From the IMG/VR virus record IMGVR_UViG_3300048574_000421: DNA of 64,000 nt, one strand, 5' to 3'. Below, piece after piece: positions 31,558-53,376 of this stretch. Each line of letters begins with the position of its first letter. Position 1 is the stretch's first letter. A program made the position numbers and the translations under genes. The stretch comes from a virus. Lineage: Duplodnaviria > Heunggongvirae > Uroviricota > Caudoviricetes. The notes under the pieces are model-generated. The model saw only the letters and a list, made by a program, of their open reading frames with translations, had not been told where the DNA came from and searched no databases.

Positions 31558-34266
31558 TTAGAATCTTACACGAATCTGGTATTCGACATCAACCCAGTTT
31601 AAACCCATGATCGGAATGTAGAAAGCTGTTACCTTGATAAAGTCAGGCTGTACTGTATCTCTTACAGCTGTAACACCCTTATAATCAACAATTATTTGAG
31701 AGTCAACTGCCGAAGCTAGCATAGATCCAAGTGTAGCAGCAATTTCACCAGCAAGATTTGCAGTCATCTTTCTTCCAATAAAAGGTTCTATTGCTCTACG
31801 TGTTTCTTGTTGAATGAAGTCTCTTATTGTTATAATCATGACTTCTCTTGTAAGAGCACTTGCCATATTTGTTGTTAAAGCATGACGAATAACAAATGTT
31901 TGACTTACTTTCATAATAACAGTCAGACCTCTAGTAGCAACCATGTCCATTGTTGTTTCATCTAGAGAACGAACAAGTTGTTTGAAACCAAGTAATGTCT
32001 TTCTTGTCATCGGTGTTGCAACATCGTAAATTGGACTAACATTCAAACCACAAAGAGCTGCAGCTAAGAATGTTCCATCTACAACATGTTCACTCACGCT
32101 TCCATCAGCTTCAACCATCTCAATAACAGCACCATCAGGATAAACACCAGTCATACGTTCTGTATTTAAAGCAAGAGCATAATTTCCAGCCTCCATAGGT
32201 TCTGTACCAACTGCAAAACCAAAGAAACTGATTCTTTCTCTTCTATTTCTCTTTGAAGACTGTGTTGCACAATGCGTTGCTGTAGCATTAATAACTGACG
32301 CTGATGTAGTAACTGGGAAAATCACAGCTGGATTTATACCATCAATGTCCTGTTCAAGACGTTTCAAAACATCAAAGTACGACTGATCAGCTGCAAGGTC
32401 ACTTCCTTCTGCCTTCATAACCTGACAAAGAATAAGAGCAGTTGCTCCATTCAAGAACATCAAGTAAGAAGCAAGAACTAAAGGGTTTGAAACTGATAAA
32501 TCACCAAACTCAGTTGTAATATCTTTGAATTTTGTGTAAAGTGCACAGTCGTAATTGTCTTTCTCGTAATAATACGATACATAATAAACATCACCAACTG
32601 CAGGTTCTCTTCCTGACTTATCAAAAGCTATAAGATCAGTGATATCTCCTGTTGTTACATCTGTTGTGTTGTTTATGTTCAAAGAAAGACCTGGGATACT
32701 AGAAACAGGGATTACGCTTGTTGTAAATGTTGCTTCTGCAACAACATCAATCTCAAGTGTATCTGTTGCAGCATACAAAGGATCAGCAGCTATAGTTAGA
32801 ATCAATCCTGTACGTGCATCAACATAAGTTGTTCCAGTTCTTCCAAAACCTGAAGAGCCATTGATAGGATCTGTCGATGTTACAGCAAAATGTGTTGACG
32901 AAGTAAATGTTAATGTTACTGTTTCATCAACTGTGTAACCTTTTGAAACCATAGGACCTGTTAAATATACAGCTCCTGTGAATGAAGGATTAGCAACAGT
33001 CTCAGTTCCTGGAACAGCTACACCAAGACGACCATCTTCAAGAGAAGAAATTGTATAAGTTCCTACACCAACACCACCTGAAGTTGCAACTTCAATACTG
33101 TAAGTATCGTCTTCCATACGTGAACGGAAATAAGTTACCATAACTGTACTTAAAGCTGCAGGAGCAAGTTCTAAATAAATAGTTCCTGTTTCACCTTCAA
33201 CTCTAGTTACTACAACTTCAATTCCATTTACTCTAACAATAACATGTGAAGGATCGTTTGTAACGATGTCTCTTCCAGTACCATCAACTATAGGGAGAAA
33301 TCTTACTGTAAAAGAAGTCATACCTGATGTGACAAACTGACTTGAAACATCTTCATTATAAATTGTATCGTCAACAAGAGTAGCTTGTATCTGATTATCA
33401 TCAAAAAATTCTCCACCTGTTGTATGAATAATTTGTGACAATTTATAACCAGTGCCCCATTGAATCTGATTACCAATAATTGCGTAATCAACGTTTTCAA
33501 CAAAGTCTGATGTTTCAGGAGACACACCAACTCTAATCATCCTTGTAAGACCAGTATAAGGAAGATCATCAGCTGTATTCATATGTGTATTGTAATAATA
33601 TGTAACAGTAAGTGTATCACCTTCTTCAGGAGGTTCTGTAAGTGTGAAAGATCCTGCAACACCATCTAAATGCGAAACTTCAACAATGACATTGTTAACT
33701 TTGACAGTAATCAAAGAAGTGTTTGTTGTAGCTTTTCCTGCATTTGTACCATCAACAATTGGTTTATGACGTGTGAAAAAAGTAACGGCATTACCATCAA
33801 CTTGAGTTGTTAAATCTTCATCAACAACTCTTGTGTCAGTCTTTTTGTAGAAATAAGTTACTGTTACTTCATCACTATCTTTAGGTGCTAAAGCAAGGTA
33901 AACTCTTCCATTTGCGCCTTCGACTTTTGCAACAATAACTTTCGTACCGTTGACTTTTACTTCAACATCATTTGTGTTATTTGTTACGTGTCCAAGTCCA
34001 TCACCAACTACAATAGGGTAGTTAAGAACAGTAAAATCACGATTTGTTCCAGTAAGTTGAGCTGAAACATCCTCGTTAACTTTTTTGTTGTCAAGATTCG
34101 GACTTGACCCGCGAACAAGTTCATATCCTTCGACTTTTTTAATCTCTTCAGCAGTTCCAATAAGTGCTGGGATTCTTTGGTTAGCAAGTAAACCTCCTAC
34201 TGCTGAGTCCAAAGTTGTCGATGTGTATACAGAGGGCGGTGCATAACCTTGAAAAGGTCCAGCCAT
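31558..34266 (-). CDS. Contractile tail sheath protein (902 aa) with three inserted beta-sandwich modules
   Basis: N-terminal YAPPSVYTST...RIPALIG; C-terminal TREVMIITIRDFIQQ...FIGRK...IKVTAFYIPIMGLNWVDVEYQI sheath fold; directly upstream of the tube gene. Confidence 0.92.
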   Translation of the reverse strand: MAGPFQGYAPPSVYTSTTLDSAVGGLLANQRIPALIGTAEEIKKVEGYELVRGSSPNLDNKKVNEDVSAQLTGTNRDFTVLNYPIVVGDGLGHVTNNTNDVEVKVNGTKVIVAKVEGANGRVYLALAPKDSDEVTVTYFYKKTDTRVVDEDLTTQVDGNAVTFFTRHKPIVDGTNAGKATTNTSLITVKVNNVIVEVSHLDGVAGSFTLTEPPEEGDTLTVTYYYNTHMNTADDLPYTGLTRMIRVGVSPETSDFVENVDYAIIGNQIQWGTGYKLSQIIHTTGGEFFDDNQIQATLVDDTIYNEDVSSQFVTSGMTSFTVRFLPIVDGTGRDIVTNDPSHVIVRVNGIEVVVTRVEGETGTIYLELAPAALSTVMVTYFRSRMEDDTYSIEVATSGGVGVGTYTISSLEDGRLGVAVPGTETVANPSFTGAVYLTGPMVSKGYTVDETVTLTFTSSTHFAVTSTDPINGSSGFGRTGTTYVDARTGLILTIAADPLYAATDTLEIDVVAEATFTTSVIPVSSIPGLSLNINNTTDVTTGDITDLIAFDKSGREPAVGDVYYVSYYYEKDNYDCALYTKFKDITTEFGDLSVSNPLVLASYLMFLNGATALILCQVMKAEGSDLAADQSYFDVLKRLEQDIDGINPAVIFPVTTSASVINATATHCATQSSKRNRRERISFFGFAVGTEPMEAGNYALALNTERMTGVYPDGAVIEMVEADGSVSEHVVDGTFLAAALCGLNVSPIYDVATPMTRKTLLGFKQLVRSLDETTMDMVATRGLTVIMKVSQTFVIRHALTTNMASALTREVMIITIRDFIQQETRRAIEPFIGRKMTANLAGEIAATLGSMLASAVDSQIIVDYKGVTAVRDTVQPDFIKVTAFYIPIMGLNWVDVEYQIRVRF

Positions 34267-34759: not shown

Positions 34760-37700
34760 TTACAAACGAACTTCAATTACACCAACATTTTCAGAATTAT
34801 AACTTTGACGTGCAATTGCAAAAGCATTGATAAGTTCTGTTTTAGTTGCCATTCTTGCAACACCAGGTATATTAGAAAGAACAAGTTTACTTCCTCGTTT
34901 TACTTGTCCAACAACTTTACATAAGACATGTCCTGTCATTGCTACACGTTTTGCATTATGCTTTATCTCAAATTGTTCTGTTGATAAATTTTGAAAATCT
35001 TCTTTTATTGTTTCGTGTTCATCTTTAGAAACAGTGAGACCACCACAAAATGCAGCTCTATCTGTTATAATACCATAAACTATCTCTGGATTTTCAGCAA
35101 TTTCAACAACCATGTCGTCAGTTTCTGATTGTTGAATTACTGTACCTACATCATATTTCGAAATATCATCTTTTACAGCAGTCCATTCAGCAAGGTCAGC
35201 AGGTGTTATTATTGTTGTTCCTGCATCAGAATAATATTGACCTGTTGCATCAATTCTTGCTACAACGCTTCCACCATTCCTAAAAATCCATTGATATCCG
35301 TGTGCATTCATCTCCATATCGTCATAAGAATGTAATGAAAGTTGTCCACTTGATCCTGCAGATATATCTACATCACCATTTGCTTTTCCATTTCCATAAA
35401 CTGAAATAAAACCACCGCTGTATGGTGTTGGTATTGCATAACCACCTTCACCATGACAAATATGAATTACACCGTCATTTGAACCCCTAATAGATTCAAA
35501 ATAAGTATTACCAATATTAGAAACATATCTGAAATAATCAGAAGGTGATGTACTTACTACTACTTGATCTACAGAATTCAAAACAAATTTATGACTGTTC
35601 ATATAAACAAGCAAATCATCATATGTATATAACGCAAGTTGTCCACTTGTTCCTGTAGATATATCTACATCGCCATTTGCTTTTCCATTTCCGTAAACAG
35701 AAATGAAACCTCCATAACTTCTAGAAGGTGTTGCATAAGCACCCTCACCATGACAAATGTGTATTGCACCGTCATTAGTTTCTCTAGAAGATTCAAAATA
35801 AGTATTTTCAGAACTATTTAAAAACTTAAAATAAGCTGTACCAGAACTTGTAATAAACTGTTCTGCAGACATAACTGTATTACTTCCAATAACTATACTT
35901 CCAGTACTTGTAGCTTTTAGATACATTCCTCCAGGAGTATTTAACGTTTGATTTCCGTTTAAATTTATATAAGCACCCTGACCTGGAAATCTTCCTCCAC
36001 ACAATGTTAATGAAGCATTACTGTTAGAACCATCGACAGTTGGTCCTGCACTTATTCTGACAGAATCACTCGTAAGAAAATGTATACCATTTTGTGAAGT
36101 AGGTACTACTAATAAAGATGCAAAACTTGAATCATAAGTTGTTCCTATACCGACTGAACCACCATCAGTACATAAATCTACGCCTTGTGTAGTACTTAAA
36201 TAAGAAGTTCTTAAACCACTAGTATCCATTGATACTGTGCCTGAACCTGCTGAAAAACTGTATGCTGCACCTATAAACATATTTGCAGTGCTCATACCAA
36301 AATTTATTGTAGTTGCACCAAAATTTATCTCATCTGTACCACTTGAAATAGTTCCATTAAGATTAATTGTTGCACTATTTATGTTAATTTTATTTTCTGA
36401 ATTTTCACTACTAACATAAATAGCAGAGTTACCTGTAGTTAAACTAATATCACCATTACTAGAATCAATAGCAATTTCAGTAGGCATCGTTCCTTGTGCT
36501 ATTTCATCAACAGGTGAAAGTACAAGCATAGTTCCTCTAGAATTTATTCTATCAATTACACCATTGTCTCCAACAAATTTGATACCTGAACCACCAATAG
36601 TGTTAAAATATACTTGACCTTCGACATGCAGTTTGTATTGAGGATTTGTAGTTCCTATACCTACATTTCCTCCTGATACTACTCTGATTCTTTCACCAGA
36701 ATCAGTAACAAATCTTAAATTTTGAGCACCAGTTCCTATCTCTAAACCTTCAGCTCCTCCAGTACCATTTGCACTTATATAACCATTTCCAGCACCACTA
36801 TAAAAACTTGCAGTACCAAAAATACCTGCATTACCTCTAAGATCAAGTTTTGTTGCAGGCGTTGCTGTACCTATACCCACATTTCCTGTAACTAATAAAT
36901 TCCCTGTTACTGAACTGTTATTCCCAACAGTAAAATCAGAACTAACATAACCTGTTCCTTGAACATGCAATTTGTATTGTGGACTAGAAGTAGCAATTCC
37001 AAAGTTACCTCCACTTTCAAGTTTTACTTTTTCTGTCCCATTAGTGAAAAAACGAATATTTCTTGCACCAGTTGATGACAAAGTCAAACCTTCAGTATTA
37101 TCAGCAGCAACTGCACCTCTTTCTGTATCATCTGTGAAAACAAATTTAAGCTCAGGTGCAGAACTCATAATTCTTATTACGCCATCTTGAACCCTTGCAT
37201 CACCTTGTACATGAAAACGACTTTGAGGCGTTGCTGTATTAACACCAACAAACCCTGTATTTAAGATAGTTAAAGCATCATTATCAGTTGCGAACGTTAT
37301 TTGTCTTAAAGTAGCACTTGAATTACGAATAGAAGAACTTATTGCATTTTGATTTGTCAAAATAAGAGTTCCACCAACAGTAGAACCTGTAGGTCCTATT
37401 TGTAAACCATCACCAAATATACTTGTTTTATATGCTGGAGCATTTGTACCTATACCTACATTCCCTAAATCAACTAACAATGCACTTCCTGTTCCAGCAT
37501 TGTGTATGTTAACAGCAGCAGCATTACCCGTTTGATTAACGTAAATTGAAGATTTATTTTGACTTTGATTGATCCGCAAAGTATCTTCAATTCCACATTC
37601 ACCTTGAACATGGAAAAGAAAAGATGGGTTTGTAGTTCCAATTCCGACAGAACCACTATTTACTATCAAAGAAGGTCCTGTTCCTGAGTTTAAAACATTT

Positions 37701-39085
37701 ATTACAGGTGCATTTCCTGCATTAGTTTTATTAATAACAAGAGCATTATCATTTACAGTTTGTGTTACGCTTAATTTTCCAGCAACATTCATGCTAGTAA
37801 AATTTGAAGCACCACCTATGTTAAGATCGCCACCTATTTCAAGATCTTGTCCTACTTCAAGAACACCAGAGATAAAACTATCTCCCTGAACATGAAAAAG
37901 ATGTAATGGATTATTTGTTCCTACACCAATGTTACCTGTAGAACTAACAAATAATCTTTCAACATTGTTTGTTTGTAATCTTATGTTTCTAGCACCAGTG
38001 GCATCAATATCAATTCCTGTTGAAACACCTTTTACATCTCCAACAAGAGAAGTTCCTTGATAAAAATCAATTTCAGGTGTTGTATTTTGCATCCTCAAAT
38101 TTTTATTATAAATATGAACACCATCTTGAGGACTAGAAGTACCCACGCCAATTCTTCCTGTTGTTGAGAAACGTATATTTTCAACTCCAGGTTCACCTAC
38201 ACTAAATGTAAGATCGTTTGCATAATTTATGTCACTTGCCATATAGATAGAACTTATTCTATGTGTATCATCACCAATTTTTGAACCATCAGATAGAACT
38301 AAGTCTGTAATTGTGTTTCCTAATGAATAACTAGATATTGAATTTACCAAAACTCTATGATCAGTAATCATTGACGTAGTAATGTTAGAATTTGTTGTTC
38401 TTACAATTGTTGCAAGTTTTACATATCTGTGATAAATACCATTACTATCAGTTCCATTGAAAGGTGTAGTTGCTCCAGGTGCAACTCTGATATCTTGAAC
38501 CATTCTTACTCTATTTGCAGTTGCAAAACCAATACCAGGAACTATAATTGATGTATCTTTATATTCAGGAGGTAATACACCTGTTCCTTCACCTACAGCA
38601 GAAACTTCAGCAAAATAAAAATCAACATATACTTCATCAGTTCTTGTTCCTACAAGAGGAGGTGCAATGGCAGGAATTAGCGTTTTTGTATAGTCATCAT
38701 CTGTTAGATTGCCTGAAGAATTTTGTTGATTGTATTCAATATCAGTTTTCAAAAACAAAATGTAACCGTCAACAAAAAGAACTCCTGCACCCTCAACAGT
38801 ACCATCACCACCTTTGATTGTAAAATTATTTGTTGGACTTGAACTTTCAACAACTTTAAAACCATCATTTGTAGATGCACCTAAAAAACAAAATCCACCA
38901 GTTGTAGCCACAAGTTGACTAGGAAAATTGCTTGTTATTAACTGACGTATATATGAATCAGAAACTTCTTGAACTTCTTCTAATTCATTTGATGAAAGAG
39001 GTACACCCTTTTGAAAATGCATTCTATAGCGTTTTGCAGGATTAAACATACTATTTTCATAATTGCCAGCAAACGAAACGCTCAT
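34760..39085 (-). CDS. Tail fibre protein (1441 aa) with GNVGIGT repeats and C-terminal peptidase G2-like autocleaved chaperone
   Basis: N-terminal FNPAKRYRMHFQKGVPL...NELEEVQ anchor; multiple G(N/S)VGIGT(T/N/A)xP repeats; C-terminal DLAEW...YGIITD...GHVLCKVVGQVKRGSKLVLSNIPGVA. Confidence 0.85.
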   Translation of the reverse strand: MSVSFAGNYENSMFNPAKRYRMHFQKGVPLSSNELEEVQEVSDSYIRQLITSNFPSQLVATTGGFCFLGASTNDGFKVVESSSPTNNFTIKGGDGTVEGAGVLFVDGYILFLKTDIEYNQQNSSGNLTDDDYTKTLIPAIAPPLVGTRTDEVYVDFYFAEVSAVGEGTGVLPPEYKDTSIIVPGIGFATANRVRMVQDIRVAPGATTPFNGTDSNGIYHRYVKLATIVRTTNSNITTSMITDHRVLVNSISSYSLGNTITDLVLSDGSKIGDDTHRISSIYMASDINYANDLTFSVGEPGVENIRFSTTGRIGVGTSSPQDGVHIYNKNLRMQNTTPEIDFYQGTSLVGDVKGVSTGIDIDATGARNIRLQTNNVERLFVSSTGNIGVGTNNPLHLFHVQGDSFISGVLEVGQDLEIGGDLNIGGASNFTSMNVAGKLSVTQTVNDNALVINKTNAGNAPVINVLNSGTGPSLIVNSGSVGIGTTNPSFLFHVQGECGIEDTLRINQSQNKSSIYVNQTGNAAAVNIHNAGTGSALLVDLGNVGIGTNAPAYKTSIFGDGLQIGPTGSTVGGTLILTNQNAISSSIRNSSATLRQITFATDNDALTILNTGFVGVNTATPQSRFHVQGDARVQDGVIRIMSSAPELKFVFTDDTERGAVAADNTEGLTLSSTGARNIRFFTNGTEKVKLESGGNFGIATSSPQYKLHVQGTGYVSSDFTVGNNSSVTGNLLVTGNVGIGTATPATKLDLRGNAGIFGTASFYSGAGNGYISANGTGGAEGLEIGTGAQNLRFVTDSGERIRVVSGGNVGIGTTNPQYKLHVEGQVYFNTIGGSGIKFVGDNGVIDRINSRGTMLVLSPVDEIAQGTMPTEIAIDSSNGDISLTTGNSAIYVSSENSENKININSATINLNGTISSGTDEINFGATTINFGMSTANMFIGAAYSFSAGSGTVSMDTSGLRTSYLSTTQGVDLCTDGGSVGIGTTYDSSFASLLVVPTSQNGIHFLTSDSVRISAGPTVDGSNSNASLTLCGGRFPGQGAYINLNGNQTLNTPGGMYLKATSTGSIVIGSNTVMSAEQFITSSGTAYFKFLNSSENTYFESSRETNDGAIHICHGEGAYATPSRSYGGFISVYGNGKANGDVDISTGTSGQLALYTYDDLLVYMNSHKFVLNSVDQVVVSTSPSDYFRYVSNIGNTYFESIRGSNDGVIHICHGEGGYAIPTPYSGGFISVYGNGKANGDVDISAGSSGQLSLHSYDDMEMNAHGYQWIFRNGGSVVARIDATGQYYSDAGTTIITPADLAEWTAVKDDISKYDVGTVIQQSETDDMVVEIAENPEIVYGIITDRAAFCGGLTVSKDEHETIKEDFQNLSTEQFEIKHNAKRVAMTGHVLCKVVGQVKRGSKLVLSNIPGVARMATKTELINAFAIARQSYNSENVGVIEVRL
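35344..35834. repeat. Tandem in-frame duplication (297-nt period) near the fibre tip
   Basis: Two copies of YFESxRxxNDGxIHICHGEGxYA...GGFISVYGNGKANGDVDISxGxSGQL with high nucleotide identity (35344-35534 vs 35641-35834). Confidence 0.9.
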
Positions 39086-39152
39086 AATGTGCTCCCTTTA
39101 TGTAGGATTTCTTACTAATCAAACTTTAATAAAAATTTTAATAAAAAAAGAA

Positions 39153-39168
39153 ATAAAAGGAGTAGAAA
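39153..39168 (-). promoter_or_regulatory. Candidate late promoter TTTCTActccTTTTAT upstream of the tail fibre gene
   Basis: Motif match just after the stop of the 409-aa gene. Confidence 0.55.
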
Positions 39169-39170
39169 AC

Positions 39171-40400
39171 TTATTGATCTGGGTATTGACGTGTAACACG
39201 AGGCCAAGCACTAGGATATACTTGATATGCGTCTATTGAAGGAGTTATTTGCAAACCTATTTGATGATTACTGTTCATCATTCTTTCATCATACTGACTT
39301 GATTCATAATGTTCTTCTGTTACATAATTTAATCCGTTTTTAAAACTATCATCACCATACCCGTAATTGACTCTACGCAATTCAGAAATTAAAGGTACAT
39401 GAATTTCCCAATCGACTTCGACAGAAAAACTTATACTTCCTGTGTAACTATATTCTTCAGGTATTTCAACCTCTAAATCTTCGCTTTCTCCGGGCAAACC
39501 AAAATTTTGTATTGAAATTCCTTCATTAGCCAAAGAATCTTGATATTCAGCCCACAAAGAAGTTACTACATAATCTATAACTCTTTCTTGTTGATCAGAA
39601 TCCTGTGCTATTCCCATTATATCTACATCTAACAACCAACGACCACCATAAACTTTCGATGTAGTTGTGTTTTCTTTTTCTACAACAACAACTTGTTCAT
39701 CTCCAACTTTTAATCTATCACCAAAAGCAAGAACAACTCCAGGAATTGCTGTGTTGTTTACGTTGTAATATGATGTAGTAAAAGGTCCAAGTTGTTTTGA
39801 ACAAACTTTATAATCAACAACTATAGGTTCATAACCTGTGACAGCGTTATTAAATAAAATTTCCCCAGTTTCGTAATTGATTGTATAATCAATGTCTCTT
39901 TTAAACTCAAACTGACCAAAGTGAGAAAATATTATTTCTGAACCTGGATTCACAGGAAAGTTTTTTAAAACAGCACCTTGTTGCGCTCTTATAACAGTTA
40001 ATTCTAGTTGTTCGTCAGTACATGCAAGATAAGGATCTATAACAAAAGTAAAATCATTCGTGTCAGGCTCGTGACCTGTCACTCGAACAATATAGAAACC
40101 TTGGGGTGATAACTTATCAAGGTTTTCTTGATCATCTCGCACCCATTCTATTGAATTTCCTGATGTTCCTTTAAGATTAGCTAACGAACAATAACCACGA
40201 TTAATTCCAATAAAATTATCTAAACTTAATTTTTGTGAACCTCCCGAGACAGACCGAATAATAATAGCTGTCTTAGGACGTTCTTCTTGTGGAAATTTTG
40301 TGTAAACTTTTGTTTTTTCAAAAATAGGGTGCTTTGCAAGAATATCTTGAAAAATCAAAACAAATCTTTTTTTGATAGCATTACTTACTAAAAAAACCAT
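39171..40400 (-). CDS. Tail terminator/tail completion protein with inserted beta-sandwich domains
   Basis: FPQEERPKTAIIIRSVSG...YGGRWLLDVDIMGIAQDSDQQERVIDYV...FSVEVDWEIHVP terminator-like pattern; lies between neck and sheath genes. Confidence 0.65.
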   Translation of the reverse strand: MVFLVSNAIKKRFVLIFQDILAKHPIFEKTKVYTKFPQEERPKTAIIIRSVSGGSQKLSLDNFIGINRGYCSLANLKGTSGNSIEWVRDDQENLDKLSPQGFYIVRVTGHEPDTNDFTFVIDPYLACTDEQLELTVIRAQQGAVLKNFPVNPGSEIIFSHFGQFEFKRDIDYTINYETGEILFNNAVTGYEPIVVDYKVCSKQLGPFTTSYYNVNNTAIPGVVLAFGDRLKVGDEQVVVVEKENTTTSKVYGGRWLLDVDIMGIAQDSDQQERVIDYVVTSLWAEYQDSLANEGISIQNFGLPGESEDLEVEIPEEYSYTGSISFSVEVDWEIHVPLISELRRVNYGYGDDSFKNGLNYVTEEHYESSQYDERMMNSNHQIGLQITPSIDAYQVYPSAWPRVTRQYPDQ

Positions 40401-40433
40401 TTTAAATTCTCTTTCTTCAAAGCACCCTAAAAT

Positions 40434-40796
40434 TTATTGTTCGTTATTGTCTAGAACAAATCTGTTCACAGCAAAAACACCAACATCTTCACCTGTTTGT
40501 TCTTGAATGCCAATAAAACCTGGTATGTTATCTTCAGCAACAACATATTTACGTCCTTTAAAAAGAGGTCCAAAATTGTCAACACATACGACAGTGTCAC
40601 CCTCTTCTATAAGTTTAGCTTCTTTTTCTTGACTTGCTTTCTTGTCAACACTTTCTATAGCAGTATCAAGTTCCTCATCAGTAAGTGTTGTTGCAAGGTG
40701 TTTAGCAATAGCTTCTAAATCTTTTGACATTTCAGGATCAATGTCTTTTGATTGTGAAGCAACTTTTGATAATTCATTTAACATATCTTGTTTCAT
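40434..40796 (-). CDS. Hypothetical protein: N-terminal helices plus C-terminal SH3/KOW-like barrel
   Basis: EEGDTVVCVDNFGPLFKGRKYVV pattern; directly downstream of the actin-like gene. Confidence 0.65.
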   Translation of the reverse strand: MKQDMLNELSKVASQSKDIDPEMSKDLEAIAKHLATTLTDEELDTAIESVDKKASQEKEAKLIEEGDTVVCVDNFGPLFKGRKYVVAEDNIPGFIGIQEQTGEDVGVFAVNRFVLDNNEQ

Positions 40797-40805
40797 GACT
40801 TCTCC

Positions 40806-41903
40806 TTATTTTGAGTTAATCATTGCATTTAAGAGACAACCCTCAGCAACAGCATTTAACTGATCTTTTGCTTTTTTTATCTCTTTAATTTTAAATGGCA
40901 ATGACCTTGACATTATTTCTTGTTCAAATAGTTTATCAAAATTTATAGCTTTTGAAGTTCCACCGCTTATAACAATTTTTATAGGTGAGTCGAAATTAGG
41001 TATATTCGTAGAATTGTTTAGTTTCTTATCAATACCTTCGCAAACATATTTTATTAAATTTTCATAATAAATTTTAATTGCTGTTTCTTCTCTGTTTTTT
41101 GGGTTTAGCAAGTCTACTCCTGCTTCTTTGATGACAGTAATTCTTGAAGACTTTAAACCCACAGCTTCAGCTGCACAAGAATCAATAAAATCTCCACCTC
41201 TTGCTAAAGAAAATTGATGTTCTTGTTCTGTTATACCACTAAATGCCAAACAAACATTTGTCATTCCTGCACCCCATGATATAGCTAAACCACTATAATC
41301 TTCTTCTTCAAGATTAGAAAAAATTATTGCTAAAGCTTCATTCATAGGCACAGCATTAAAACCAAAAGATGTTATAAAAGATTTTAAAACATTTTCATGA
41401 TAAACAACATTATAATCATCTTTGTCAATAGGTTTTGCAGGGACAGAAAAATAACAATTTTCTTTTTCGACAACAGGTTCGCCCAATAAACTTTTTAAAA
41501 TTAATTTAATTATTGAAAGTGCAGATTTTTCTCTTGTAGAAATCACACCATGTGATAAAGGTCTTTTACACTCTTTATTAAAAAAATCAGCGAAACGCAA
41601 TGCTTCATTTCCAACAATTTGCAACAAATTTTTTGAATTTTCACACTCGATATAACTTACGTTCATTTTTGAAAGCATTGACATTGTAGAAATACTTTTT
41701 TCAATCTCAAAAAATGCATCACGTTCTAACTTAAAAGAAGCAATATTACTTCTAGAAATAGCTGCAACACAATTACCAGTTCCCACATCTAGACCACTCG
41801 CTGGAAATCTATCTATAGCTTCTTTCCTTCTTATTCTTTTTATCTCTTGTTCATCTTTTTTAACTTCTTGTTCATCTTTTTTGTTTTCAAGATCAATCTC
41901 CAT
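40806..41903 (-). CDS. Actin-family ATPase (ASKHA fold), resembling the volactin-type family
   Basis: Phosphate-1 GLDVGTGN, connect-1 PMNEALA, phosphate-2 ISWGAGMTNVC, ARGGDFID, adenosine VISGGTS, connect-2 LNAVAEG. Confidence 0.9.
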   Translation of the reverse strand: MEIDLENKKDEQEVKKDEQEIKRIRRKEAIDRFPASGLDVGTGNCVAAISRSNIASFKLERDAFFEIEKSISTMSMLSKMNVSYIECENSKNLLQIVGNEALRFADFFNKECKRPLSHGVISTREKSALSIIKLILKSLLGEPVVEKENCYFSVPAKPIDKDDYNVVYHENVLKSFITSFGFNAVPMNEALAIIFSNLEEEDYSGLAISWGAGMTNVCLAFSGITEQEHQFSLARGGDFIDSCAAEAVGLKSSRITVIKEAGVDLLNPKNREETAIKIYYENLIKYVCEGIDKKLNNSTNIPNFDSPIKIVISGGTSKAINFDKLFEQEIMSRSLPFKIKEIKKAKDQLNAVAEGCLLNAMINSK

Positions 41904-42852
41904 AAAAAAACTCCTGTCTTAAATCTGGGTAAAATTTTTCTTTATAAGAGTACATAATTTGTTTTAATTCGTTGTCTTTTTCGATTTTTTCTTTTAAATT
42001 AAAGTTTGATGAAACAATTTGCTCAGATTTGATTGAAGAATTTATTCTTCTAATATCTTGAATTTTTTTAAAATTTTGAAGCATTAATTTAATAGACAAA
42101 ATGCACCAATCTATATTACTATCTATGACGCTTTGCCAAAAACGTAAAACTACAAAACCATTATCATTTAACGTTTTTGTGACAAACTCATCTCTTTCTC
42201 TAATTTGCTTTGCTGTATATCTTCCTATTCTTTGACTTGAGTCACATTTTTTAGGGTTTGCATGCCAAAAATCACCATCAACAAGTATTACTATTTTTTT
42301 CTCTATGTCAAGTTCATCTAAAGAAAACCTTTTTTTATCAATAGAAACCCATTGTTCAGTCAAAAAATTGTTTTCTGGAAAATAAGAATTAATAACAGCT
42401 TTTAATCTTCTGTGAGGTGAAGTAAAATAATTTGTTTTCACACTCTTTTTATTTTTTTGTTTAAAACATTTTTCACATATGTTACTATGACTATATTTTT
42501 TTATTTTTGTTTTTTCATTACAAACTTTACAAAAAACTTCTTTTTCACCATCGCGTTGCTTCTTTATTTTGTTTTTATACTCATTATTATTTTTCTTACA
42601 AGTATCACAATATTTAGAACAAGAAAAAAAATTAACATTTATTTCATTTGAACAACCAAGACAAAATATTTTTTTTGTTTCTTTTTTGTGACAATTTATA
42701 AATTTACTTTGACTTTTGTTCTCATACAAATTTTTAACAATATCTTGATATTCAACAGTTTTCTTACAGTTGTCACAAAAATACCAAGAATAGAATTTTT
42801 TTACCTCTATGTCATTATCGCAAATTCTACATTTTTTTTTTACAAATTCCAT
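41893..42852 (-). mobile_element. Free-standing homing endonuclease, Vsr/DUF559-like, with CxxC repeats
   Basis: LDELDIEKKIVILVDGDFWH...RD...L...GFVVLRFW; several CxxC pairs; overlaps both neighbours. Confidence 0.8.
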
Positions 42853-43046
42853 TAATTTTGCCTTTTAAAAATCTCTAAAGTATCTATAGGATTTCCTTTA
42901 TCGAATTTTTCCCTAGTTTTTAAACCCTCAGGAATTTCTTTTTCAAAAAAATCTTGCTCTAATAAAAACTGTGAAACATCACCTTGTTGTGATCTTGAAA
43001 CACTTGCTTTAATTGATTCTTTTATTATTTTTTCAAAATTAATCAT
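42852..43046 (-). CDS. Hypothetical protein (64 aa)
   Basis: ORF track; translationally coupled on both sides. Confidence 0.6.
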   Translation of the reverse strand: MINFEKIIKESIKASVSRSQQGDVSQFLLEQDFFEKEIPEGLKTREKFDKGNPIDTLEIFKRQN

Positions 43047-43690
43047 ATTTTGTTATCTTTTTTTAGTTTTTTAATTTTCTCTAAAGAACTAGTGAGATCA
43101 GATTTTTCTTGTTTTTCAATTCCTATATTACTCATATTTGCTGTTATTCCAGCTTCTTCATCTTTAAAATCTATAAAAATAGTTTCAGAACTGCTATCAA
43201 TCTTTATATCTTTACCAGAGGTATGTGGTACATTTAGTTGTTCTATTTTAATATTGTCTTTAATTTCTGTGACCATCTCTTTTGCAAGTTCTTTAGCAAT
43301 CTCTTTCACTAAAGGACTATTTCTGATCATTTCTTCAGCCATAGTTTGGGCCATTGTTTTTGCAATATTAACTATTTCGTTTTGAGATATATTTTGAGAA
43401 CTTTCTTGAGTAGCAATTGTTTTTTTTGCTACAGTTTTATTGTAAACAACTTCAACCCAGTTTCTACTTATTGCATTTTTTAAATCTCTAGAACTTTTTG
43501 CTTCAAATTCTGTCAAGAAAACTTCTTTACCACACTCGACAACTTTCCTAATATCACTAAGACGTACTGCAGTAAGAATTTTCCCTCTTATAATCATATA
43601 AATGTCATCTTCCTGTTTCATAACTGGTGGTTTCCAAACACGTCTCATTAAGTGCTGCTGAAAGCTCATAAACCAACTTCTCAAACTCAT
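43043..43690 (-). CDS. Hypothetical protein (215 aa) with central amphipathic helical repeat
   Basis: AKTMAQTMAEEM...EIAKELAKEM segment; ORF track. Confidence 0.75.
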   Translation of the reverse strand: MSLRSWFMSFQQHLMRRVWKPPVMKQEDDIYMIIRGKILTAVRLSDIRKVVECGKEVFLTEFEAKSSRDLKNAISRNWVEVVYNKTVAKKTIATQESSQNISQNEIVNIAKTMAQTMAEEMIRNSPLVKEIAKELAKEMVTEIKDNIKIEQLNVPHTSGKDIKIDSSSETIFIDFKDEEAGITANMSNIGIEKQEKSDLTSSLEKIKKLKKDNKI

Positions 43691-43706
43691 GTTATTCTAG
43701 CAATTC

Positions 43707-44075
43707 TTAGATTAGTTTCTTTATAGCATCTTGAATTTGCTTTCCAGCTTGCTCTTGCGTTCTCTCCATAGCCCTATTTATACCTGCTGTAGAGAACTCT
43801 TGTTTACTCATTTCTTGATTTAATAATTCTATTGGTATTTTTTCAAAACCTTTTAAAACTGTTCTTGCTTGATCTGCTGGAATATCTTCAGATTCTATTT
43901 TCTCTTGCTTAGGCTCTACAACAAAAGTCACTTTATTTTTATCTATCGTATAAGTAACTTTTGCTTCTTGCCCTTCTTTGCTAAGCTCTGATTGAATGTT
44001 ATTCATTCCCTTGATAGCAATTGTTCGCATACCAAAGTCGAATTTTTTCTTAACCATCTTTTTCAAGCTTATCAT
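43707..44075 (-). CDS. Hypothetical protein, possibly HK97 gp10-like tail completion protein
   Basis: 122 aa ending GINRAMERTQEQAGKQIQDAIKKLI; syntenic position between head closure and tail terminator. Confidence 0.45.
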   Translation of the reverse strand: MISLKKMVKKKFDFGMRTIAIKGMNNIQSELSKEGQEAKVTYTIDKNKVTFVVEPKQEKIESEDIPADQARTVLKGFEKIPIELLNQEMSKQEFSTAGINRAMERTQEQAGKQIQDAIKKLI

Positions 44076-44090
44076 TTAGTTCTTTATTTT

Positions 44091-44106
44091 ATAAATTTTT
44101 TAGAAA
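44091..44106 (-). promoter_or_regulatory. Candidate late promoter variant TTTCTAaaaaATTTAT
   Basis: One mismatch to the motif; overlaps the stop of the last glycosyltransferase; 15 nt before the ATG at 44075, the same spacing as the copy at 6594. Confidence 0.45.
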
Positions 44107-47102
44107 ACTCTATTTTGTGTTTCTAATAGTTTATTTATCACAGAAAGATTTGTTTTTGCAGCGTCAAAATTCGGATTTATAGAAAGAGCACTCTTAAACA
44201 TACGCACTGCTTTTAAAAAATTGTTTCTACTTGCAAGTTCAATACCTTTTTCATTATATACTATCTCTAATAAACCTGTTGAAATCATTTCATCTTTGTT
44301 CATCTTTAAACACTTTTCAAAAATCACTATTGCTTCATCATATTTTTTTAAAGTGCTACAACAGTATCCAAAATCTGTCATTGTCTTGAAATCTGTTGTC
44401 TTGTAAGCTATCTTTTTAAATTCACAATATGCATCCTCATACTTATGTTGTTTTGCATAACAAATGCCAAGATGTTTCACAGCATATTCAGTTTCTTTTA
44501 TTTCAATAGATTCTTTAAATTTCTGTTCAGCTTGCTTATAATCTTCTAACAAGTTAAAAACTGTGCCTAAATGAGATAAAGCATCAACATTCTTAGGATC
44601 ATGTTCAAGTAATTTTCTCCAAATAACTATAGATTCATCATAATTATTAAGAACCATATATTGCGTACCAAGTTCATAAAGTGCTTTCTCATCATTTGTC
44701 GTAAGAGCTTTCTCTTTTCCAAGTTTCAAATACAATTCATTTTTTGAAGAATTAAATTTTGAATAATGATGTATTGGTATATCGCACAAATCTATTTCGA
44801 TTTCAAGCTCATTTATTGATTGCTCGACAAGTTCATGTACTTGACCATAAAACATAATTTTTTTATTTGTCGGGAATAACCGTACTTTGTCAGAACGACA
44901 CCAACCTACATAATTCTTTTCTTCGTCTTTATATTCACCCGTGTTTATATTTACACCTTCAGCATCTCTTGTTTTCACATAATTTCTTGTCGAAAAAACA
45001 TAAGCTTTCTGCTCGCCTTTAAGCAAACTTCTTAATTTATCAAGATCAATACTGCTTATAATCTCATCAGCATCTAACACTAAAGTCCATGCTTGTGTTG
45101 CTTGTGATAAAGAAAAATTTCTTGCAGCAGAAAAATCATCAATCCATTCAAAATGGAAAATTTTTGCACCATACTGCTTTGCTATTTTAATAGTATCATC
45201 TGTAGATCCTGTATCTACAACAATAATTTCTGATGCTATTGTTTTTATAGAACTCAAACAATTTGCTAAACAATTTTCTTCATTTTTCACAATCATGCAA
45301 ACAGAAAGTCGCTCTTTTTGCATATCCCAATAATTTGCATATAGTTTATGCAGAACCCCCTCTAGCGCATCAATACTATTGTGCCATAGGTATTCATTAG
45401 CAGTTTTCAGGCCTCCCTCGACCAAACGAGAGTAAAGGATGTTGTTTGAAAAAAGAAGTTTAAGAGCATGCTGAATTGCTGTACTGTCAGATGAATTAAT
45501 GACTAACGAATTTTTTCCGTTTTGTGCATAATCATTACCTCCACAATCCGTAGTAATAACTGGAGTTCCACATGCCATAGATTCTAAAGGTGGTAAACTA
45601 AAACCTTCAACTTTTAAAGGTGCATTTATAGTGACATCACAAGAAGAATATACTTCAGCGATCTGTTCTTGAGTCATTTTTGACATATCATGAAATTCAC
45701 AACCTTCATCAAATTTTGTCTTCTCTGAAGCTAAACGTACTATTACACCCTTTGAAGTTTTCAAATACTGTCTTACAGCATCAAGAGCTATTTTTACTCC
45801 CTTAAATTCTAAATTATAGTTACTTACAATCAAAATTCTAGCGTTTTTATTTCTACTATGAGATTTTAGCGGGAAAACATATTCGTTTATTCCATTTGGA
45901 ATAAAATAACAATTGACTCCAAATTCTTTATCAAGAATAGACTTTAGCCATTTTGAAACTGCAAATTTGACATTTACACTTCTATAACTATCTTTAATTG
46001 TTTGGATTAAAGCTTGACAATCATTTTCAGAATATAATAATGCTTCATAACCCTGCGAAAAATGTATTTTCACTTTAGCTTTTATTTTTTCAAGTACTTT
46101 TAATGTCGTAAAATATGTACCTATTGCAATATCACACTCAGGTATATCAGAAATTTCTTTGAAATAAAAAATGGGTGCATGTAAACCAAACCAAGTATCT
46201 AACTCATTTTTGTTGCACCAGATTGAGACATTGTAACCTCTATCTTTTAATCTGTTTGCATGTTCAAATATAACTTTCACGCCACCAGAAGGACCATTAG
46301 AAGCAAGTACGTATATTATAGAAAAATCTTCTTTTTTGTTCTGTATTAATCTTATTCGTCCTGTGTTGTACCATTTTTCTATATAAAGTTTTTTACTTTT
46401 TTCAAAGACTACATTATAAGAAGGTTGTTTAAATCTTTCACTGAATGATTTTCCACCATAATGATAAACAAGAACACCAAGAGCACAATAAAGTTTATAT
46501 CCTTTCTCTATTGCACGCAAACCTAAGTCGTCATCTTCAAAATTAAACTCAAATCTTTCATCAAAAATACCAGACCTATCTAGTACTTCTTTTTTTGTAA
46601 CCATACAGAAACCAATTAATCTATTTGTTTCAACAGATTTTTCACCATTTTCTCTCCAAACTTTTTCAGAAAAAACTTCAATAGGTGAATTGTTTTCTAC
46701 ATCTAAAGGCTGAAAGTAATCAAAAGGTATTTGTTGAACTTCAGATGATACATAGTTTGAGACAGGTCCTACAATTCCTGCATTATTTTTTTCTAAGCAA
46801 TCAATCAACCTTGTCAACCAGTTTTGTGTAACAATAGTATCACTATTTAAAAAACAAATATATTTTGAGTTCGACTCTCTAATTGCTTGATTGTTAGCAT
46901 AACCAAAACCGTAATTTTTACTATTTGTAATTAATTTTACTTGTAAAGTTTTTAAATAGTTTTTAGTTTCAATATTTGAACAATTATCAACAATAGTTAT
47001 TTTATAGGGAAAATCTGTATTTTTTACAATACTGTCAATGCATTTTTTAATATGCAACAATGCATTATGCACGACAATAATGATTTCACACTCATTTTTC
47101 AT
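44100..47102 (-). CDS. Multidomain glycosyltransferase GT2-GT4-GT2-TPR
   Basis: GT2 (IIIVVHN...DNCS...FLNSD...FEDDD); GT4 (SGGVKVIFEHAN...EGFSLPPLESMACGTPV); GT2 (LSVCMIVKNEE...DTGSTD...LDADE); C-terminal TPRs. Confidence 0.92.
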   Translation of the reverse strand: MKNECEIIIVVHNALLHIKKCIDSIVKNTDFPYKITIVDNCSNIETKNYLKTLQVKLITNSKNYGFGYANNQAIRESNSKYICFLNSDTIVTQNWLTRLIDCLEKNNAGIVGPVSNYVSSEVQQIPFDYFQPLDVENNSPIEVFSEKVWRENGEKSVETNRLIGFCMVTKKEVLDRSGIFDERFEFNFEDDDLGLRAIEKGYKLYCALGVLVYHYGGKSFSERFKQPSYNVVFEKSKKLYIEKWYNTGRIRLIQNKKEDFSIIYVLASNGPSGGVKVIFEHANRLKDRGYNVSIWCNKNELDTWFGLHAPIFYFKEISDIPECDIAIGTYFTTLKVLEKIKAKVKIHFSQGYEALLYSENDCQALIQTIKDSYRSVNVKFAVSKWLKSILDKEFGVNCYFIPNGINEYVFPLKSHSRNKNARILIVSNYNLEFKGVKIALDAVRQYLKTSKGVIVRLASEKTKFDEGCEFHDMSKMTQEQIAEVYSSCDVTINAPLKVEGFSLPPLESMACGTPVITTDCGGNDYAQNGKNSLVINSSDSTAIQHALKLLFSNNILYSRLVEGGLKTANEYLWHNSIDALEGVLHKLYANYWDMQKERLSVCMIVKNEENCLANCLSSIKTIASEIIVVDTGSTDDTIKIAKQYGAKIFHFEWIDDFSAARNFSLSQATQAWTLVLDADEIISSIDLDKLRSLLKGEQKAYVFSTRNYVKTRDAEGVNINTGEYKDEEKNYVGWCRSDKVRLFPTNKKIMFYGQVHELVEQSINELEIEIDLCDIPIHHYSKFNSSKNELYLKLGKEKALTTNDEKALYELGTQYMVLNNYDESIVIWRKLLEHDPKNVDALSHLGTVFNLLEDYKQAEQKFKESIEIKETEYAVKHLGICYAKQHKYEDAYCEFKKIAYKTTDFKTMTDFGYCCSTLKKYDEAIVIFEKCLKMNKDEMISTGLLEIVYNEKGIELASRNNFLKAVRMFKSALSINPNFDAAKTNLSVINKLLETQNRVF

Positions 47103-47110
47103 TTATTTCC

Positions 47111-47692
47111 TCACAAAAGTTTTACTTCGCTCCACTTTAAAACAACTCTTTTTTTTATATTAGAAAAAATATCGTTTTGTTTACCGTACCAATTTTGAAT
47201 TATATCAAGACGTTCACAAAACCAAAGTACTCTATTTAAGTTCATTTGTTCTATTCTTTCAATAAACTCTACATCAATCATTTTTAGTTTTGCATCTTTT
47301 ACCATAAAGTTTATTATTGTGAAATCATAGTTTATGAAACCTCTATTCCACATAAATTCAAACAAATCTAATACTTGTTTTATAATTACATCTTTATACT
47401 GCTCGTCTGATACTATAACTTTAATTAAATTTTCATAACCTTCTAATTCTTCCATAAGCAATAAAATCTTGTTATCTAAAAAAGCAAAATCATATATTTT
47501 TACAATATCTTCAACATTATCTATTTTTTTATAATTCTCATAACTCCCTATAATTTTACTTGCATTCCAAGCATCGGTTCGTGTCTCTTTCAAAAAAAAA
47601 TTCTGATCTTCAATAAAGACTCTATAAAAAATAGAAAATGGAGTTTTTAGAACTTCTATTTTTTGACTAATATTAGAGATTTTTATATCCAA
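47111..47692 (-). CDS. Protein-kinase-like fold kinase (sugar/RIO/Kdo kinase-like)
   Basis: FFLKE lysine strand, LLMEELEG hinge, NYDFTIIN catalytic loop, IDVE (DFG-like). Confidence 0.75.
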   Translation of the reverse strand: MDIKISNISQKIEVLKTPFSIFYRVFIEDQNFFLKETRTDAWNASKIIGSYENYKKIDNVEDIVKIYDFAFLDNKILLLMEELEGYENLIKVIVSDEQYKDVIIKQVLDLFEFMWNRGFINYDFTIINFMVKDAKLKMIDVEFIERIEQMNLNRVLWFCERLDIIQNWYGKQNDIFSNIKKRVVLKWSEVKLL

Positions 47693-48234
47693 AACTCACC
47701 CTCAAAAATTTCATCAAGACCTTCAAGTCTTTTTTTTGTAATTGATGTTTTTGATTTTATAGCAAAAAAAGCGCCAAAACCTATTTTTTTATGAAAATTA
47801 GGAAACACCCAACATTTGTAACCCAATTTGACAAAATCTTCTGGGTACCAACCTGATAAATGTGTATGATATTGTTCTTTACACTCATGGATTCCGACAG
47901 GTCCTAAAGGTGTAAAAAATATTATTCTGTCGTTTGTCAGTTTTTCAAGTGTTTTGATTAAAGTAAAACCATCATTTTTTTCTAAATGTTCGATCATATC
48001 AAAACATGTCACAAGATTGAAAAATTTCTCTTTTAAAAAAACAGAAAGTTGAAGAGCATCACCAGCAAAAAATGGCATTGGTGTCGTCTTAAAATCTGAC
48101 CTGTTTATTTCACTACATAATAAGTTTTTAGAAGTAATAATGTTACTAAATCTAAATGTCTCACCTGTTCCTACATCAAGATGATTTTCTACGTTCTTAG
48201 GTAGAACTGTCTCAAAAGCTTTTAAATAAATCAT
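47683..48234 (-). CDS. Class I SAM-dependent methyltransferase
   Basis: HLDVGTG motif I; FNLVTCFDMIEHL. Confidence 0.85.
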   Translation of the reverse strand: MIYLKAFETVLPKNVENHLDVGTGETFRFSNIITSKNLLCSEINRSDFKTTPMPFFAGDALQLSVFLKEKFFNLVTCFDMIEHLEKNDGFTLIKTLEKLTNDRIIFFTPLGPVGIHECKEQYHTHLSGWYPEDFVKLGYKCWVFPNFHKKIGFGAFFAIKSKTSITKKRLEGLDEIFEGEFWI

Positions 48235-48854
48235 TTTCTCAACACCACAACTTTTCTATCACCAAAAGTTCCAGATTTTGTTATTTTTTCTATAGTAAAA
48301 TATTTTTCTGCTTCTTCTATAAACCTACATTCTGTATAATCTTTTGTGAAACTATTGTCTTCCCAAGCACCAAGTTGTATTAAATAACTGCTTTCTAGAG
48401 GTAGTTCTAAAACAACATATCTAGAAGATAAAGCATCAATCTTTTTGAATACACTCCAACCTTCGTCTTTATACAAATAATGAAAACAATTTCCTGAAAA
48501 AATCATGTCGTATTTTACATTACTTGCAAATTCAGAAAAACTACAGTTTTTGATTTCAAGATTATTGCAATTTCTTACGTTTTTTATTTGGTTGCATAAA
48601 TTGACAGCATCAATGTTTTTCTCAATTCCCATGACATACTTTGATTTTAGCGAATGATAAAACAAAAAGTAGCCTATTGAACTACCAATATCTAAAAAAC
48701 AATCAAATGAAGAAAACAATATAGGAACTTCTTTTGAAAACACTTCAATTCGCAACTTTAACAAACCAAGAGGCTCTAACGTCTTTATGTCATAATAATA
48801 GTTTTGAGGATAAGCAGTTTCAAGTAGACGTCTTTGGATTTCTTCTAATGACAA
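48231..48854 (-). CDS. Class I SAM-dependent methyltransferase
   Basis: FLDIGSSIGYF...VMGIE...YDMIFSGNCFHYL. Confidence 0.85.
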   Translation of the reverse strand: MSLEEIQRRLLETAYPQNYYYDIKTLEPLGLLKLRIEVFSKEVPILFSSFDCFLDIGSSIGYFLFYHSLKSKYVMGIEKNIDAVNLCNQIKNVRNCNNLEIKNCSFSEFASNVKYDMIFSGNCFHYLYKDEGWSVFKKIDALSSRYVVLELPLESSYLIQLGAWEDNSFTKDYTECRFIEEAEKYFTIEKITKSGTFGDRKVVVLRK

Positions 48855-48859
48855 GTTTA

Positions 48860-51216: not shown

Positions 51217-51217
51217 A

Positions 51218-52732: not shown

Positions 52733-53376
52733 ATTTTTCCGTTTTGCTGTTTATTATATTGTTCAATTTCAAACTCAAAATCAGTTGTCTTTCTCCACGA
52801 CAAACTCCAGTGATGAACAGCATAAGAGTTTGGAAACTCTTTAGCTGCAATATATGGACTGTTGCATAAATATGGATAGAAAAAATTTGTGGGTATTGTC
52901 GCTACATTCCAACCTATTTCTTGTATTGCTTCTGTCATCAAAGTAGGTCCCCAAGGTGGCGGCAACATATAATATCTATGCAAGTTTTTATACTGATAAA
53001 CTATCCATTCATGCTGCTTTATAGCTCCAAATATAGCATTACAATATAAATTGGGAGTTTCTTTACAAGAAAATGCTTCAAAAATCAAGAAATCATCAAT
53101 GTTTTTATTCCATTCAAAATCCATATCGCAATAAACACCACCATAATTCATAATAGCATATAATCTAACAATATTTGATTTTGAACTAAATTGTTGAGCT
53201 GAGTTAGTCATTGTAACTAACTCAGTGTTTTTACATATCTCACGATCTGTCCATAATTTGTATTGCCAATCAGGATGCAAATCTTGCCACTCGTTCTTCC
53301 ATCGAATAAATGGCTCTGGAATTTTATTCTGACCTAACCACACTTGATGTAAAATTTTAGGTATTATTTTACTCAT
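52729..53376 (-). CDS. GT32 (DXD sugar-binding) glycosyltransferase
   Basis: IPKILHQVWLG...SNIVRLYAIMNYGGVYCDMD...HHWSLSW. Confidence 0.9.
   Translation of the reverse strand: MSKIIPKILHQVWLGQNKIPEPFIRWKNEWQDLHPDWQYKLWTDREICKNTELVTMTNSAQQFSSKSNIVRLYAIMNYGGVYCDMDFEWNKNIDDFLIFEAFSCKETPNLYCNAIFGAIKQHEWIVYQYKNLHRYYMLPPPWGPTLMTEAIQEIGWNVATIPTNFFYPYLCNSPYIAAKEFPNSYAVHHWSLSWRKTTDFEFEIEQYNKQQNGKI

Follow-up and report, generated by a model that had tools for sequence, protein, structure and literature searches.

Why a tailed phage should carry an actin-like gene among its virion genes, and what the encoded protein would do there, is the question raised by a locus in a 210,938-bp IMG/VR virus record (IMGVR_UViG_3300048574_000421, Caudoviricetes; CheckV 91%, flagged 'provirus'). 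A stretch of 64,000 nt from this record, referred to as the window, was analyzed around the gene, here called VOL, whose protein is also encoded by a recorded 426,911-bp contig. VOL is assigned to the volactin family of actin-like proteins, recurs at a fixed position in a lineage of huge phages and is accompanied by a second gene, p215, with which it would form a functional unit late in infection. The gene and its ribosome-binding site are located as follows.

40806-41903, minus strand: VOL, predicted volactin-family actin-fold ATPase of 365 aa (open reading frame (ORF) with ATG start, PF25216 match)
41911-41915, minus strand: Shine-Dalgarno sequence AGGAG, 7 nt before the VOL start codon (direct sequence reading)

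Family assignment and sequence motifs of VOL

The sole significant match of VOL in Pfam is PF25216 (Volactin), with an E-value of 2.4e-70 and a score of 238 bits (curated gathering score 35 bits) over profile positions 3-321 of 321. The match was reproduced in a genome-level search, in which the same model also detects Haloferax volcanii among the control genomes. At E ≤ 1, none of the Pfam families MreB_Mbl (PF06723), FtsA, ParM, Actin, HSP70, ROK, FGGY and BcrAD/kinase was matched. No PHROGs family was found for VOL or for the two genes that follow it, p120 and p409.

A preliminary description of the locus, made from the sequence without database searches, had listed a series of motifs. The coordinates given there delimit an exact ORF, and every motif is found in its translation: GLDVGTGN, ALRFADFFNKECKRPLSHG, SVPAKPID, YH, NE, GAGMTNVCLA, FSLARGGDFID, IKE, IYYENLIKYV and GGTS. 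The accompanying statement that all nucleotide-binding motifs are intact holds for phosphate 1 (D39-x-G-T, here D39-V-G-T), the connect motif (N188-E189) and the adenosine motif (G314-G-T-S), but not for the phosphate-2 loop. This loop reads S-W-G-A-G-M-T-N, with Ser209 in place of the Asp of MreB, MamK, actin and VolA and Met214 in place of Thr. In the alignment of VOL relatives, phosphate 1, the G211-A-G213 loop and G314-G-T-S are invariant, and 49 columns are invariant overall, including D39, G41, T42, N188, E189, G211, G213, G237, D238 and G314-T316. The form S-[FWC]-G-x-G-M-x-N is found in every phage and Planctomycetota member that was aligned with MreB and MamK-like proteins. Since the serine is invariant across the phage and Planctomycetota branch, it is regarded as a clade feature and not as decay.

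The actin core comprises residues 34-365 and is preceded by a disordered, K/E-rich tail (residues 1 to ~33) with a 7-aa tandem repeat. A 21-nt tandem duplication at window positions 41837-41878 encodes this KKDEQE(V/I) repeat. The tail is present in the phage clade of low guanine-cytosine (GC) content, has a different form in Planctomycetota and is short in a second phage clade.

Predicted fold and structural neighbors

An AlphaFold2 model of VOL, built from 22 homologs, has a predicted local distance difference test score (pLDDT) of 89 and a predicted template modeling (TM) score of 0.86; only residues 2-28 are disordered (below 50). When the model was compared with the PDB by Foldseek, MamK ranked first (E 1e-15; TM-score 0.77 by target, filament form), followed by BeeR, MreB, actin and crenactin. 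MamK is also the only solved relative that was recovered in a sequence-profile search (E 9e-8). VIA-align, an independent all-against-representatives structure search, gave the highest Z-score for BeeR (28.1), followed by crenactin and MreB (25.8), BiP (24.1) and actin (23.1). Lower scores were obtained for the nucleotide-binding domains of Hsp70 proteins (21-24), ParM-type proteins and Alp7A (19-23) and sugar kinases (17-18). Judged by the model, the closest structural matches of VOL are filament-forming actins, and a grouping with non-polymerizing enzymes of the acetate and sugar kinase/Hsp70/actin superfamily, which would have spoken against a cytoskeletal protein, was not observed.

Conservation in huge phages

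The protein database holds 475 VOL homologs at E ≤ 1e-3, all of which belong to PF25216. A profile search of 1.84 billion representatives returned 1441 clusters, 489 of them at E ≤ 1e-30, and the best 150 clusters are all from the phage/bacterial branch. In IMG/VR, 509 contigs encode a VOL relative. The GenBank phage set contains two, in the uncultured huge phages LR745208.1 (485 kb) and LR756511.1 (595 kb). Two genes downstream of VOL served as landmarks of the genomic neighborhood.

39171-40400, minus strand: p409, neck/tail-terminator-class virion protein (AlphaFold2 pLDDT 74.6, Foldseek neck matches)
31558-34266, minus strand: tail sheath (phrog_2839, tail sheath, E 7e-32; located after p409 in nearly all related loci)

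The assignment of p409 to the neck/terminator class follows from the Foldseek matches of its model to the necks of phage 812 (E 1.5e-8), E217, Pa193, Sf14, Bas63 and Pam3 and to the terminator gp7 of A-1(L). Synteny was examined in the best 80 of the 509 IMG/VR loci and in LR745208.1. The order p919 (Fn3-associated) ... VOL - p409 - (~145 aa) - sheath recurs across these loci, which have a local GC content of 0.26-0.69 and lie on contigs of up to 618 kb. The reverse test started from p409 alone, by which 76 further loci were fetched; VOL lies upstream on the same strand in 70 of the 71 loci with sufficient upstream DNA. Going by gene content and order, VOL is a near-universal gene within a lineage of huge contractile-tailed phages. 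The position is conserved in related phages, as the preliminary description had proposed to check, and the gene is a fixed syntenic member of a large phage lineage, not a sporadic recent host gene. Its remark that phage actins are uncommon does not apply inside this lineage.

VOL is under strong purifying selection. The ratio of non-synonymous to synonymous substitution rates (dN/dS) is 0.10 between the VOL genes of the window and of locus L255, the closest pair with 83% identity, and 0.15-0.34 for other pairs, for which dS is near saturation.

In ~20 of the best 150 representative clusters (formed at 50% identity), the VOL homolog is split by an intein. Two insertion sites were found, one in the phosphate-2 loop (...S / intein / CGAGM.N) and one in the ARGGD motif (FSLAR / intein / CGDW(I/V)D). 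Inteins tend to persist at sites that are intolerant of imprecise loss. One intein-bearing copy sits in a similar gene order. The intein-bearing homologs of other phages are P0121-P0130 and L256:8001-10094.

The candidate upstream partner p215

Upstream of VOL, a second conserved gene was identified.

43043-43690, minus strand: p215, candidate partner or adaptor of VOL (upstream linkage in phage loci; C-terminal basic amphipathic peptide)

Of 82 distinct phage loci, 78 have a same-strand ORF of the p215 family no more than 4 kb upstream of VOL (directly adjacent in 29), and this family accompanies VOL even in loci without neck synteny (L140-L142, L160-L167). Searches of p215 against Pfam and PHROGs and a fold search yielded no known family or fold and no recognizable DNA-binding family. 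The C-terminus of p215 (...ITANMSNIGIEKQEKSDLTSSLEKIKKLKKDNKI) is a conserved basic amphipathic peptide. Its sequence would fit a ParR-like docking helix and a MinD/FtsA-like membrane-targeting helix alike.

In Planctomycetota, 48 of ~69 loci have a conserved gene as the immediate upstream neighbor of the volactin gene. Profile-profile comparison (hhalign) of the p215 family with this partner gives a match over the C-terminal 37 columns only (probability 87.5%, E 3.6e-6), in which ...ITANMSNIGIEKQEKSDLTSSLEKIKKLKKDNKI of the window is aligned with ...LESNMDNVEVKKKTGGGIAANLAKLKKLKGG of the Planctomycetota partner. The volactins of phages and Planctomycetota and their upstream partners may thus represent an ancient two-gene module. 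The gene directly upstream of VOL in most loci of the second phage clade (clade B, family F2) was considered as a partner and rejected, with an hhalign probability below 1% against both p215 and the Planctomycetota partner.

Longer forms of the protein occur in the representative library (P0131, P0140, P0171, P0183, P0219, P0274) and include a 729-aa tandem double-volactin. In other longer forms, a region like the N-terminal part of the Planctomycetota partner is fused ahead of the volactin domain. Such partner-like fusions possibly provide Rosetta-stone support for the pair; run-through in gene calling is also conceivable.

Cellular relatives, phylogeny and host

A scan of prokaryotes with one genome per species gave at least 556 matches to the VOL family. 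The best 80 are all from Planctomycetota, including complete chromosomes of 7-9 Mb, with 39-45% identity; the nearest cellular relative is ~44% identical over 329 residues. Among 151 sampled Planctomycetota genomes, 65 carry the family above the cut-off. The neighbors of the Planctomycetota genes are cellular (sigma-54 activators, histidine kinases, dihydropteroate synthase, amidase), and the GC content of these loci is 0.55-0.73 as against ~0.31 in the window. The volactin gene sometimes occurs there in tandem pairs. The same genomes carry a true MreB (~430 bits) and a MamK-like ('saltatorellin'-type) actin, which amounts to three actin families per cell.

Of the earlier placement in the haloarchaeal volactin family rather than with MreB, ParM or FtsA, the family was borne out by the PF25216 match; the nearest cellular relatives, on the other hand, are Planctomycetota. 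The top clusters in the AlphaFold database, A0A897MTD5 and M0ASS7, are probably haloarchaeal and show 24% and 17% identity, respectively, at a TM-score of 0.77 by query.

Phylogenetic trees were calculated with FastTree (193 rows) and IQ-TREE (79 rows). In agreement with the profile match to the volactin family, long branches with support divide the volactin group from MreB and the MamK-like proteins. Inside it, the low-GC phage clade to which the window belongs, another large clade of phages and that of Planctomycetota reach a support of 94-99 each; the branches between these clades have a support of 12-72. As the clades are deep and well supported and their mutual order is poorly supported, VOL is neither a recent capture nor a clear case of donor and recipient. 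Saltatorellin was also considered as the bacterial counterpart of VOL. The MamK-like protein L175 ends in ...YWEQLK, in keeping with a published primer, and its branch lies outside the volactin group; the 'saltatorellin' of Saltatorellota is of the MamK-like type, separate from the volactin family.

The phage host is bacterial, since related records carry transfer-messenger RNA (tmRNA) and trigger factor. Among five related records with a syntenic VOL, a full tmRNA was found over threshold in four and a trigger-factor gene in three; among the control genomes, the trigger-factor model matches only bacterial ones. Some close homologs (P0005, P0045, P0074) are filed under metagenome-assembled genomes named 'Candidatus Nanoarchaeia archaeon' and 'Nitrosarchaeum sp.'. 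The names were rejected as evidence of an archaeal host: the contigs show the gene order of the huge phages, and P0045 differs only slightly from the VOL in an IMG/VR phage record of 424 kb that has tmRNA and trigger factor. The homologs are probably mis-binned phage DNA.

Operon context of VOL

The window has a GC content of ~0.31, and nearly all of its genes are encoded on the minus strand. In the direction of transcription, the order is p122, p215, p64, an endonuclease gene with Zn-ribbon and DUF559/Vsr-type domains, VOL, p120, p409, a gene for a 1441-aa fibre and the sheath gene. The VOL block reads as one late transcription unit because its genes overlap or are 9-85 nt apart and no terminator-like sites were found between them. 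Promoter-like sites in the block are at chance level. The remaining genes of the block are listed below.

42852-43046, minus strand: p64, small ORF between p215 and VOL (homologs at the same place in L002, L091, L093, L255)
41893-42852, minus strand: free-standing homing endonuclease with Zn-ribbon repeats and a DUF559/Vsr-like nuclease domain (PF04480 DUF559, 22.6 bits, cut-off 20.6; phrog_13076, endonuclease)
40434-40796, minus strand: p120, small acidic protein directly downstream of VOL (homologs at the same place in L002, L092-L098, L255; no family match)
34760-39085, minus strand: tail fibre protein of 1441 aa (phrog_9942 and phrog_18345, both tail fibre; synteny)

VOL had been described as lying between gp10-like and tail terminator genes. 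The downstream side of this statement agrees with the neck/terminator-type fold of p409; upstream, no 'gp10-like' family was confirmed, and the direct neighbor is the homing endonuclease gene, which had gone unmentioned. It immediately precedes VOL, with an 11-nt overlap at the VOL start. The gene is regarded as an insertion because the nearest relative, L255, is without it; homologs occupy this position in L097 and L124, two distant phage loci. This placement suggests homing aimed at the conserved VOL region. p64 is retained in the nearest relatives only and p120 is conserved only in the low-GC phage clade, in which the 1441-aa fibre gene is inserted between p409 and the sheath gene. Nearby genes for baseplate J, a tape-measure-like protein, the sheath, tail fibres and a glycosyltransferase cluster mark a contractile-tailed phage.

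Comparison with known systems

The first comparison is with VolA (HVO_2015) of Hfx. volcanii, which forms dynamic filaments in vivo and acts in cell-shape transitions (PMC10869688). The nucleotide motifs of VolA given in the supplement of that study are QDGSET, VDFGAGT and TGGTSS. VOL and VolA share the Pfam family, the actin fold, the 'xFGAG' type of phosphate-2 glycine loop and the adenosine motif 'GGTS', as opposed to the GGGT/GGGA style of MreB. They differ in that VolA is encoded on an archaeal chromosome and has the phosphate-2 Asp, whereas VOL lies in a bacteriophage virion operon and has Ser. A role in cell shape is known for VolA and none is indicated for VOL, whose partner is also different (p215-type, with the C-terminal basic peptide). 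The Planctomycetota volactins resemble VOL more closely, with 44% identity, the phosphate-2 loop S-x-G-x-G-M-x-N and an upstream partner that ends in ...NL.(K/R)LKKLK. Unlike VOL, they are found in a housekeeping gene context and at a high GC content (0.55-0.73), and they form a separate monophyletic clade.

Among bacterial actins, BeeR from Verrucomicrobiota, which forms three-stranded tubes, resembles VOL in its disordered N-terminal extension (PMC11929497) and is the top VIA-align match of VOL. The magnetosome actin MamK is its only PDB match by sequence profile and the first in Foldseek. Both belong to other families, VOL being without a PF06723 match, and neither has a virion context. The phosphate-2 motif DxGGGT of MreB, Mbl and MamK differs from that of VOL.

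Other viruses encode homologs of cytomotive filament proteins as well. The tubulins PhuZ and TubZ are phage-encoded cytomotive filaments thought to organize infection (PMC7950403). VOL differs from them in being an actin. From these phage cytoskeletons and from AlpC it is further set apart by its actin family, its place in a late neck/tail block and its status as a lineage-wide core gene. In the Corynebacterium prophage CGP3, the actin-like AlpC and its adaptor AlpA act together in phage DNA replication. The ParM-ParR-parC system resembles the VOL locus in that an actin is paired with a small protein from a linked upstream gene, the C-terminal peptide of which might bind the filament. Dissimilar are the lack of centromere repeats in the VOL region, the lack of a DNA-binding family in the partner, the structural operon and the weaker structural match (Z ~19-23 for ParM).

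Proposed function and alternative explanations

Volactin and p215 probably constitute a unit of the late neck-tail operon that forms ATP-dependent filaments and organizes a late step of infection. The unit is fixed in the stretch from neck to tail-terminator genes and would therefore be made together with virion parts. VOL would bind ATP and polymerize into dynamic cytoplasmic filaments, by analogy with VolA, MamK and BeeR. The C-terminal peptide of p215 would either attach to the filament in the way ParR docks on ParM or tether it to the membrane like the tails of MinD and FtsA, and the N-terminal part would bind a cargo or site. The late step could be the positioning or uniting of heads and tails, the specific cargo being a guess.

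Several points weigh against this proposal. BiP reaches a Z-score of 24.1, at a small margin from the 25.8-28.1 of the actins, and because Hsp70 nucleotide-binding domains score nearly as high, the two-lobed actin fold is insufficient for a filament claim. With Ser209 and the Met that replaces Thr, hydrolysis could be changed or less efficient. The direct relationship to VolA rests on the Pfam model and the motif strings, with the likely haloarchaeal entries at 17-24% identity. Polymerization, ATPase activity and partner binding are attributed to the phage proteins by analogy. The peptide of p215 resembles a membrane-targeting helix as well, and in the window p215 is parted from VOL by two genes, p64 and the endonuclease gene. 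Finally, the strict linkage to the neck gene would equally suit an assembly factor or a virion component.

This last point leads to the view that VOL forms no filaments and is an actin-fold ATPase serving in morphogenesis or as a minor component of the virion, for example in neck-to-tail joining or in terminator/fibre assembly. VOL is almost always located directly before p409 and near the sheath gene, Hsp70 nucleotide-binding domains resemble it closely in structure (Z 21-24), its phosphate-2 loop has Ser for Asp, and a precedent exists in the closterovirus Hsp70 homolog, an actin-fold ATPase required for virion tail assembly. We consider this explanation unlikely, since VOL has no substrate-binding domain, its nearest families (MamK, BeeR, MreB, crenactin, VolA) all polymerize, the same protein and partner are chromosomal in Planctomycetota with no virion genes nearby, and the pair is also found in the phage loci without neck synteny mentioned above. 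If VOL does form filaments, these might instead reshape or stiffen the host cell, e.g. by enlarging it for very large virions or by replacing MreB, and not act on virions. The function of VolA in the cell-shape transitions of Hfx. volcanii (PMC10869688) points in this direction, as does the likeness of the partner peptide to membrane-targeting amphipathic helices. Host takeover genes are usually early and variable; VOL, by contrast, lies within the most conserved late virion block, and its linkage to the neck gene extends across phages of very different GC content and presumably different hosts, so that a host-reshaping role is distinctly unlikely.

Systems of an actin and a linked small partner, such as ParMRC, Alp7AR and AlpAC, resemble the arrangement of VOL and an upstream protein with a C-terminal peptide, and the 'provirus' flag of the record would be compatible with DNA positioning of the ParM/ParR or AlpC type, e.g. 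in a plasmid-like carrier state or in replication. This role is disfavored by the operon context and by the lack of repeats, and we rate it as very unlikely. The pair lies in a late structural operon away from replication and partition genes, and a search for iteron, parC-like or centromere repeat arrays in positions 39000-44200 gave none, just short two-copy AT-rich matches. Moreover, p215 has no recognizable DNA-binding family, VOL is nearer to BeeR, MreB and MamK (Z 28-26) than to ParM and Alp7A (19-23), and the Planctomycetota homologs are chromosomal and located beside housekeeping genes. That VOL is a recently captured host gene (moron) with no phage-specific role can hardly be maintained. 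Cellular homologs of ~44% identity do exist in Planctomycetota, but the phage sequences form deep clades of their own apart from the monophyletic Planctomycetota clade, hundreds of contigs retain the gene at this position, purifying selection is strong, and the difference in GC content (0.31 versus 0.55-0.73) rules out a recent transfer.

A more far-reaching form of the filament proposal is put forward tentatively and is rather doubtful at present. Actin filaments would, by means of the adaptor p215, gather, position or join heads and tails or scaffold neck assembly, and the module would have moved between viruses and cells across domains. If true, this would be the first actin-based virus-assembly machine in prokaryotes, and the occurrence of the same module in Planctomycetota and, distantly, in haloarchaea would make it an ancient cytoskeletal module that crosses domains.

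Relation to previous reports

[quoted passage not shown] A search for volactin-type actins in phages found no paper describing them in the library searched, and the term 'PF25216' was found in no paper. In reviews and papers on huge phages, actin comes up only in general remarks or among the references; the matches to 'actin' in the COBRA preprint were discarded as word-start matches that do not refer to actin. An actin family that had been studied in a haloarchaeon only is found here as a near-universal and predicted late gene in a large lineage of huge phages with a wide ecological distribution. Hundreds of related giant phages retain the arrangement and so probably build their own actin filaments late in infection, which bears on the assembly of very large virions in crowded cells. 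The family joins phage, planctomycete and archaeal actins and bears on the spread of cytomotive filaments. With VOL and p215, two small soluble proteins suited to expression in E. coli, the system is tractable.

Further features of the phage genome

Elsewhere in the record, a portal protein, a head-maturation protease and collagen-like fibres are encoded. The large subunit of the ribonucleotide reductase of the same phage contains an intein (L007:10110-13655; G000 153107-156655). A large glycosyltransferase/methyltransferase cluster (window positions 44100-53376, minus strand) precedes the p122-p215-VOL block as an insertion. It includes a 1000-aa protein with multiple glycosyltransferase domains and tetratricopeptide repeats. 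The cluster is variable among related loci, where fused glycosyltransferase proteins of 1666-1819 aa are found.

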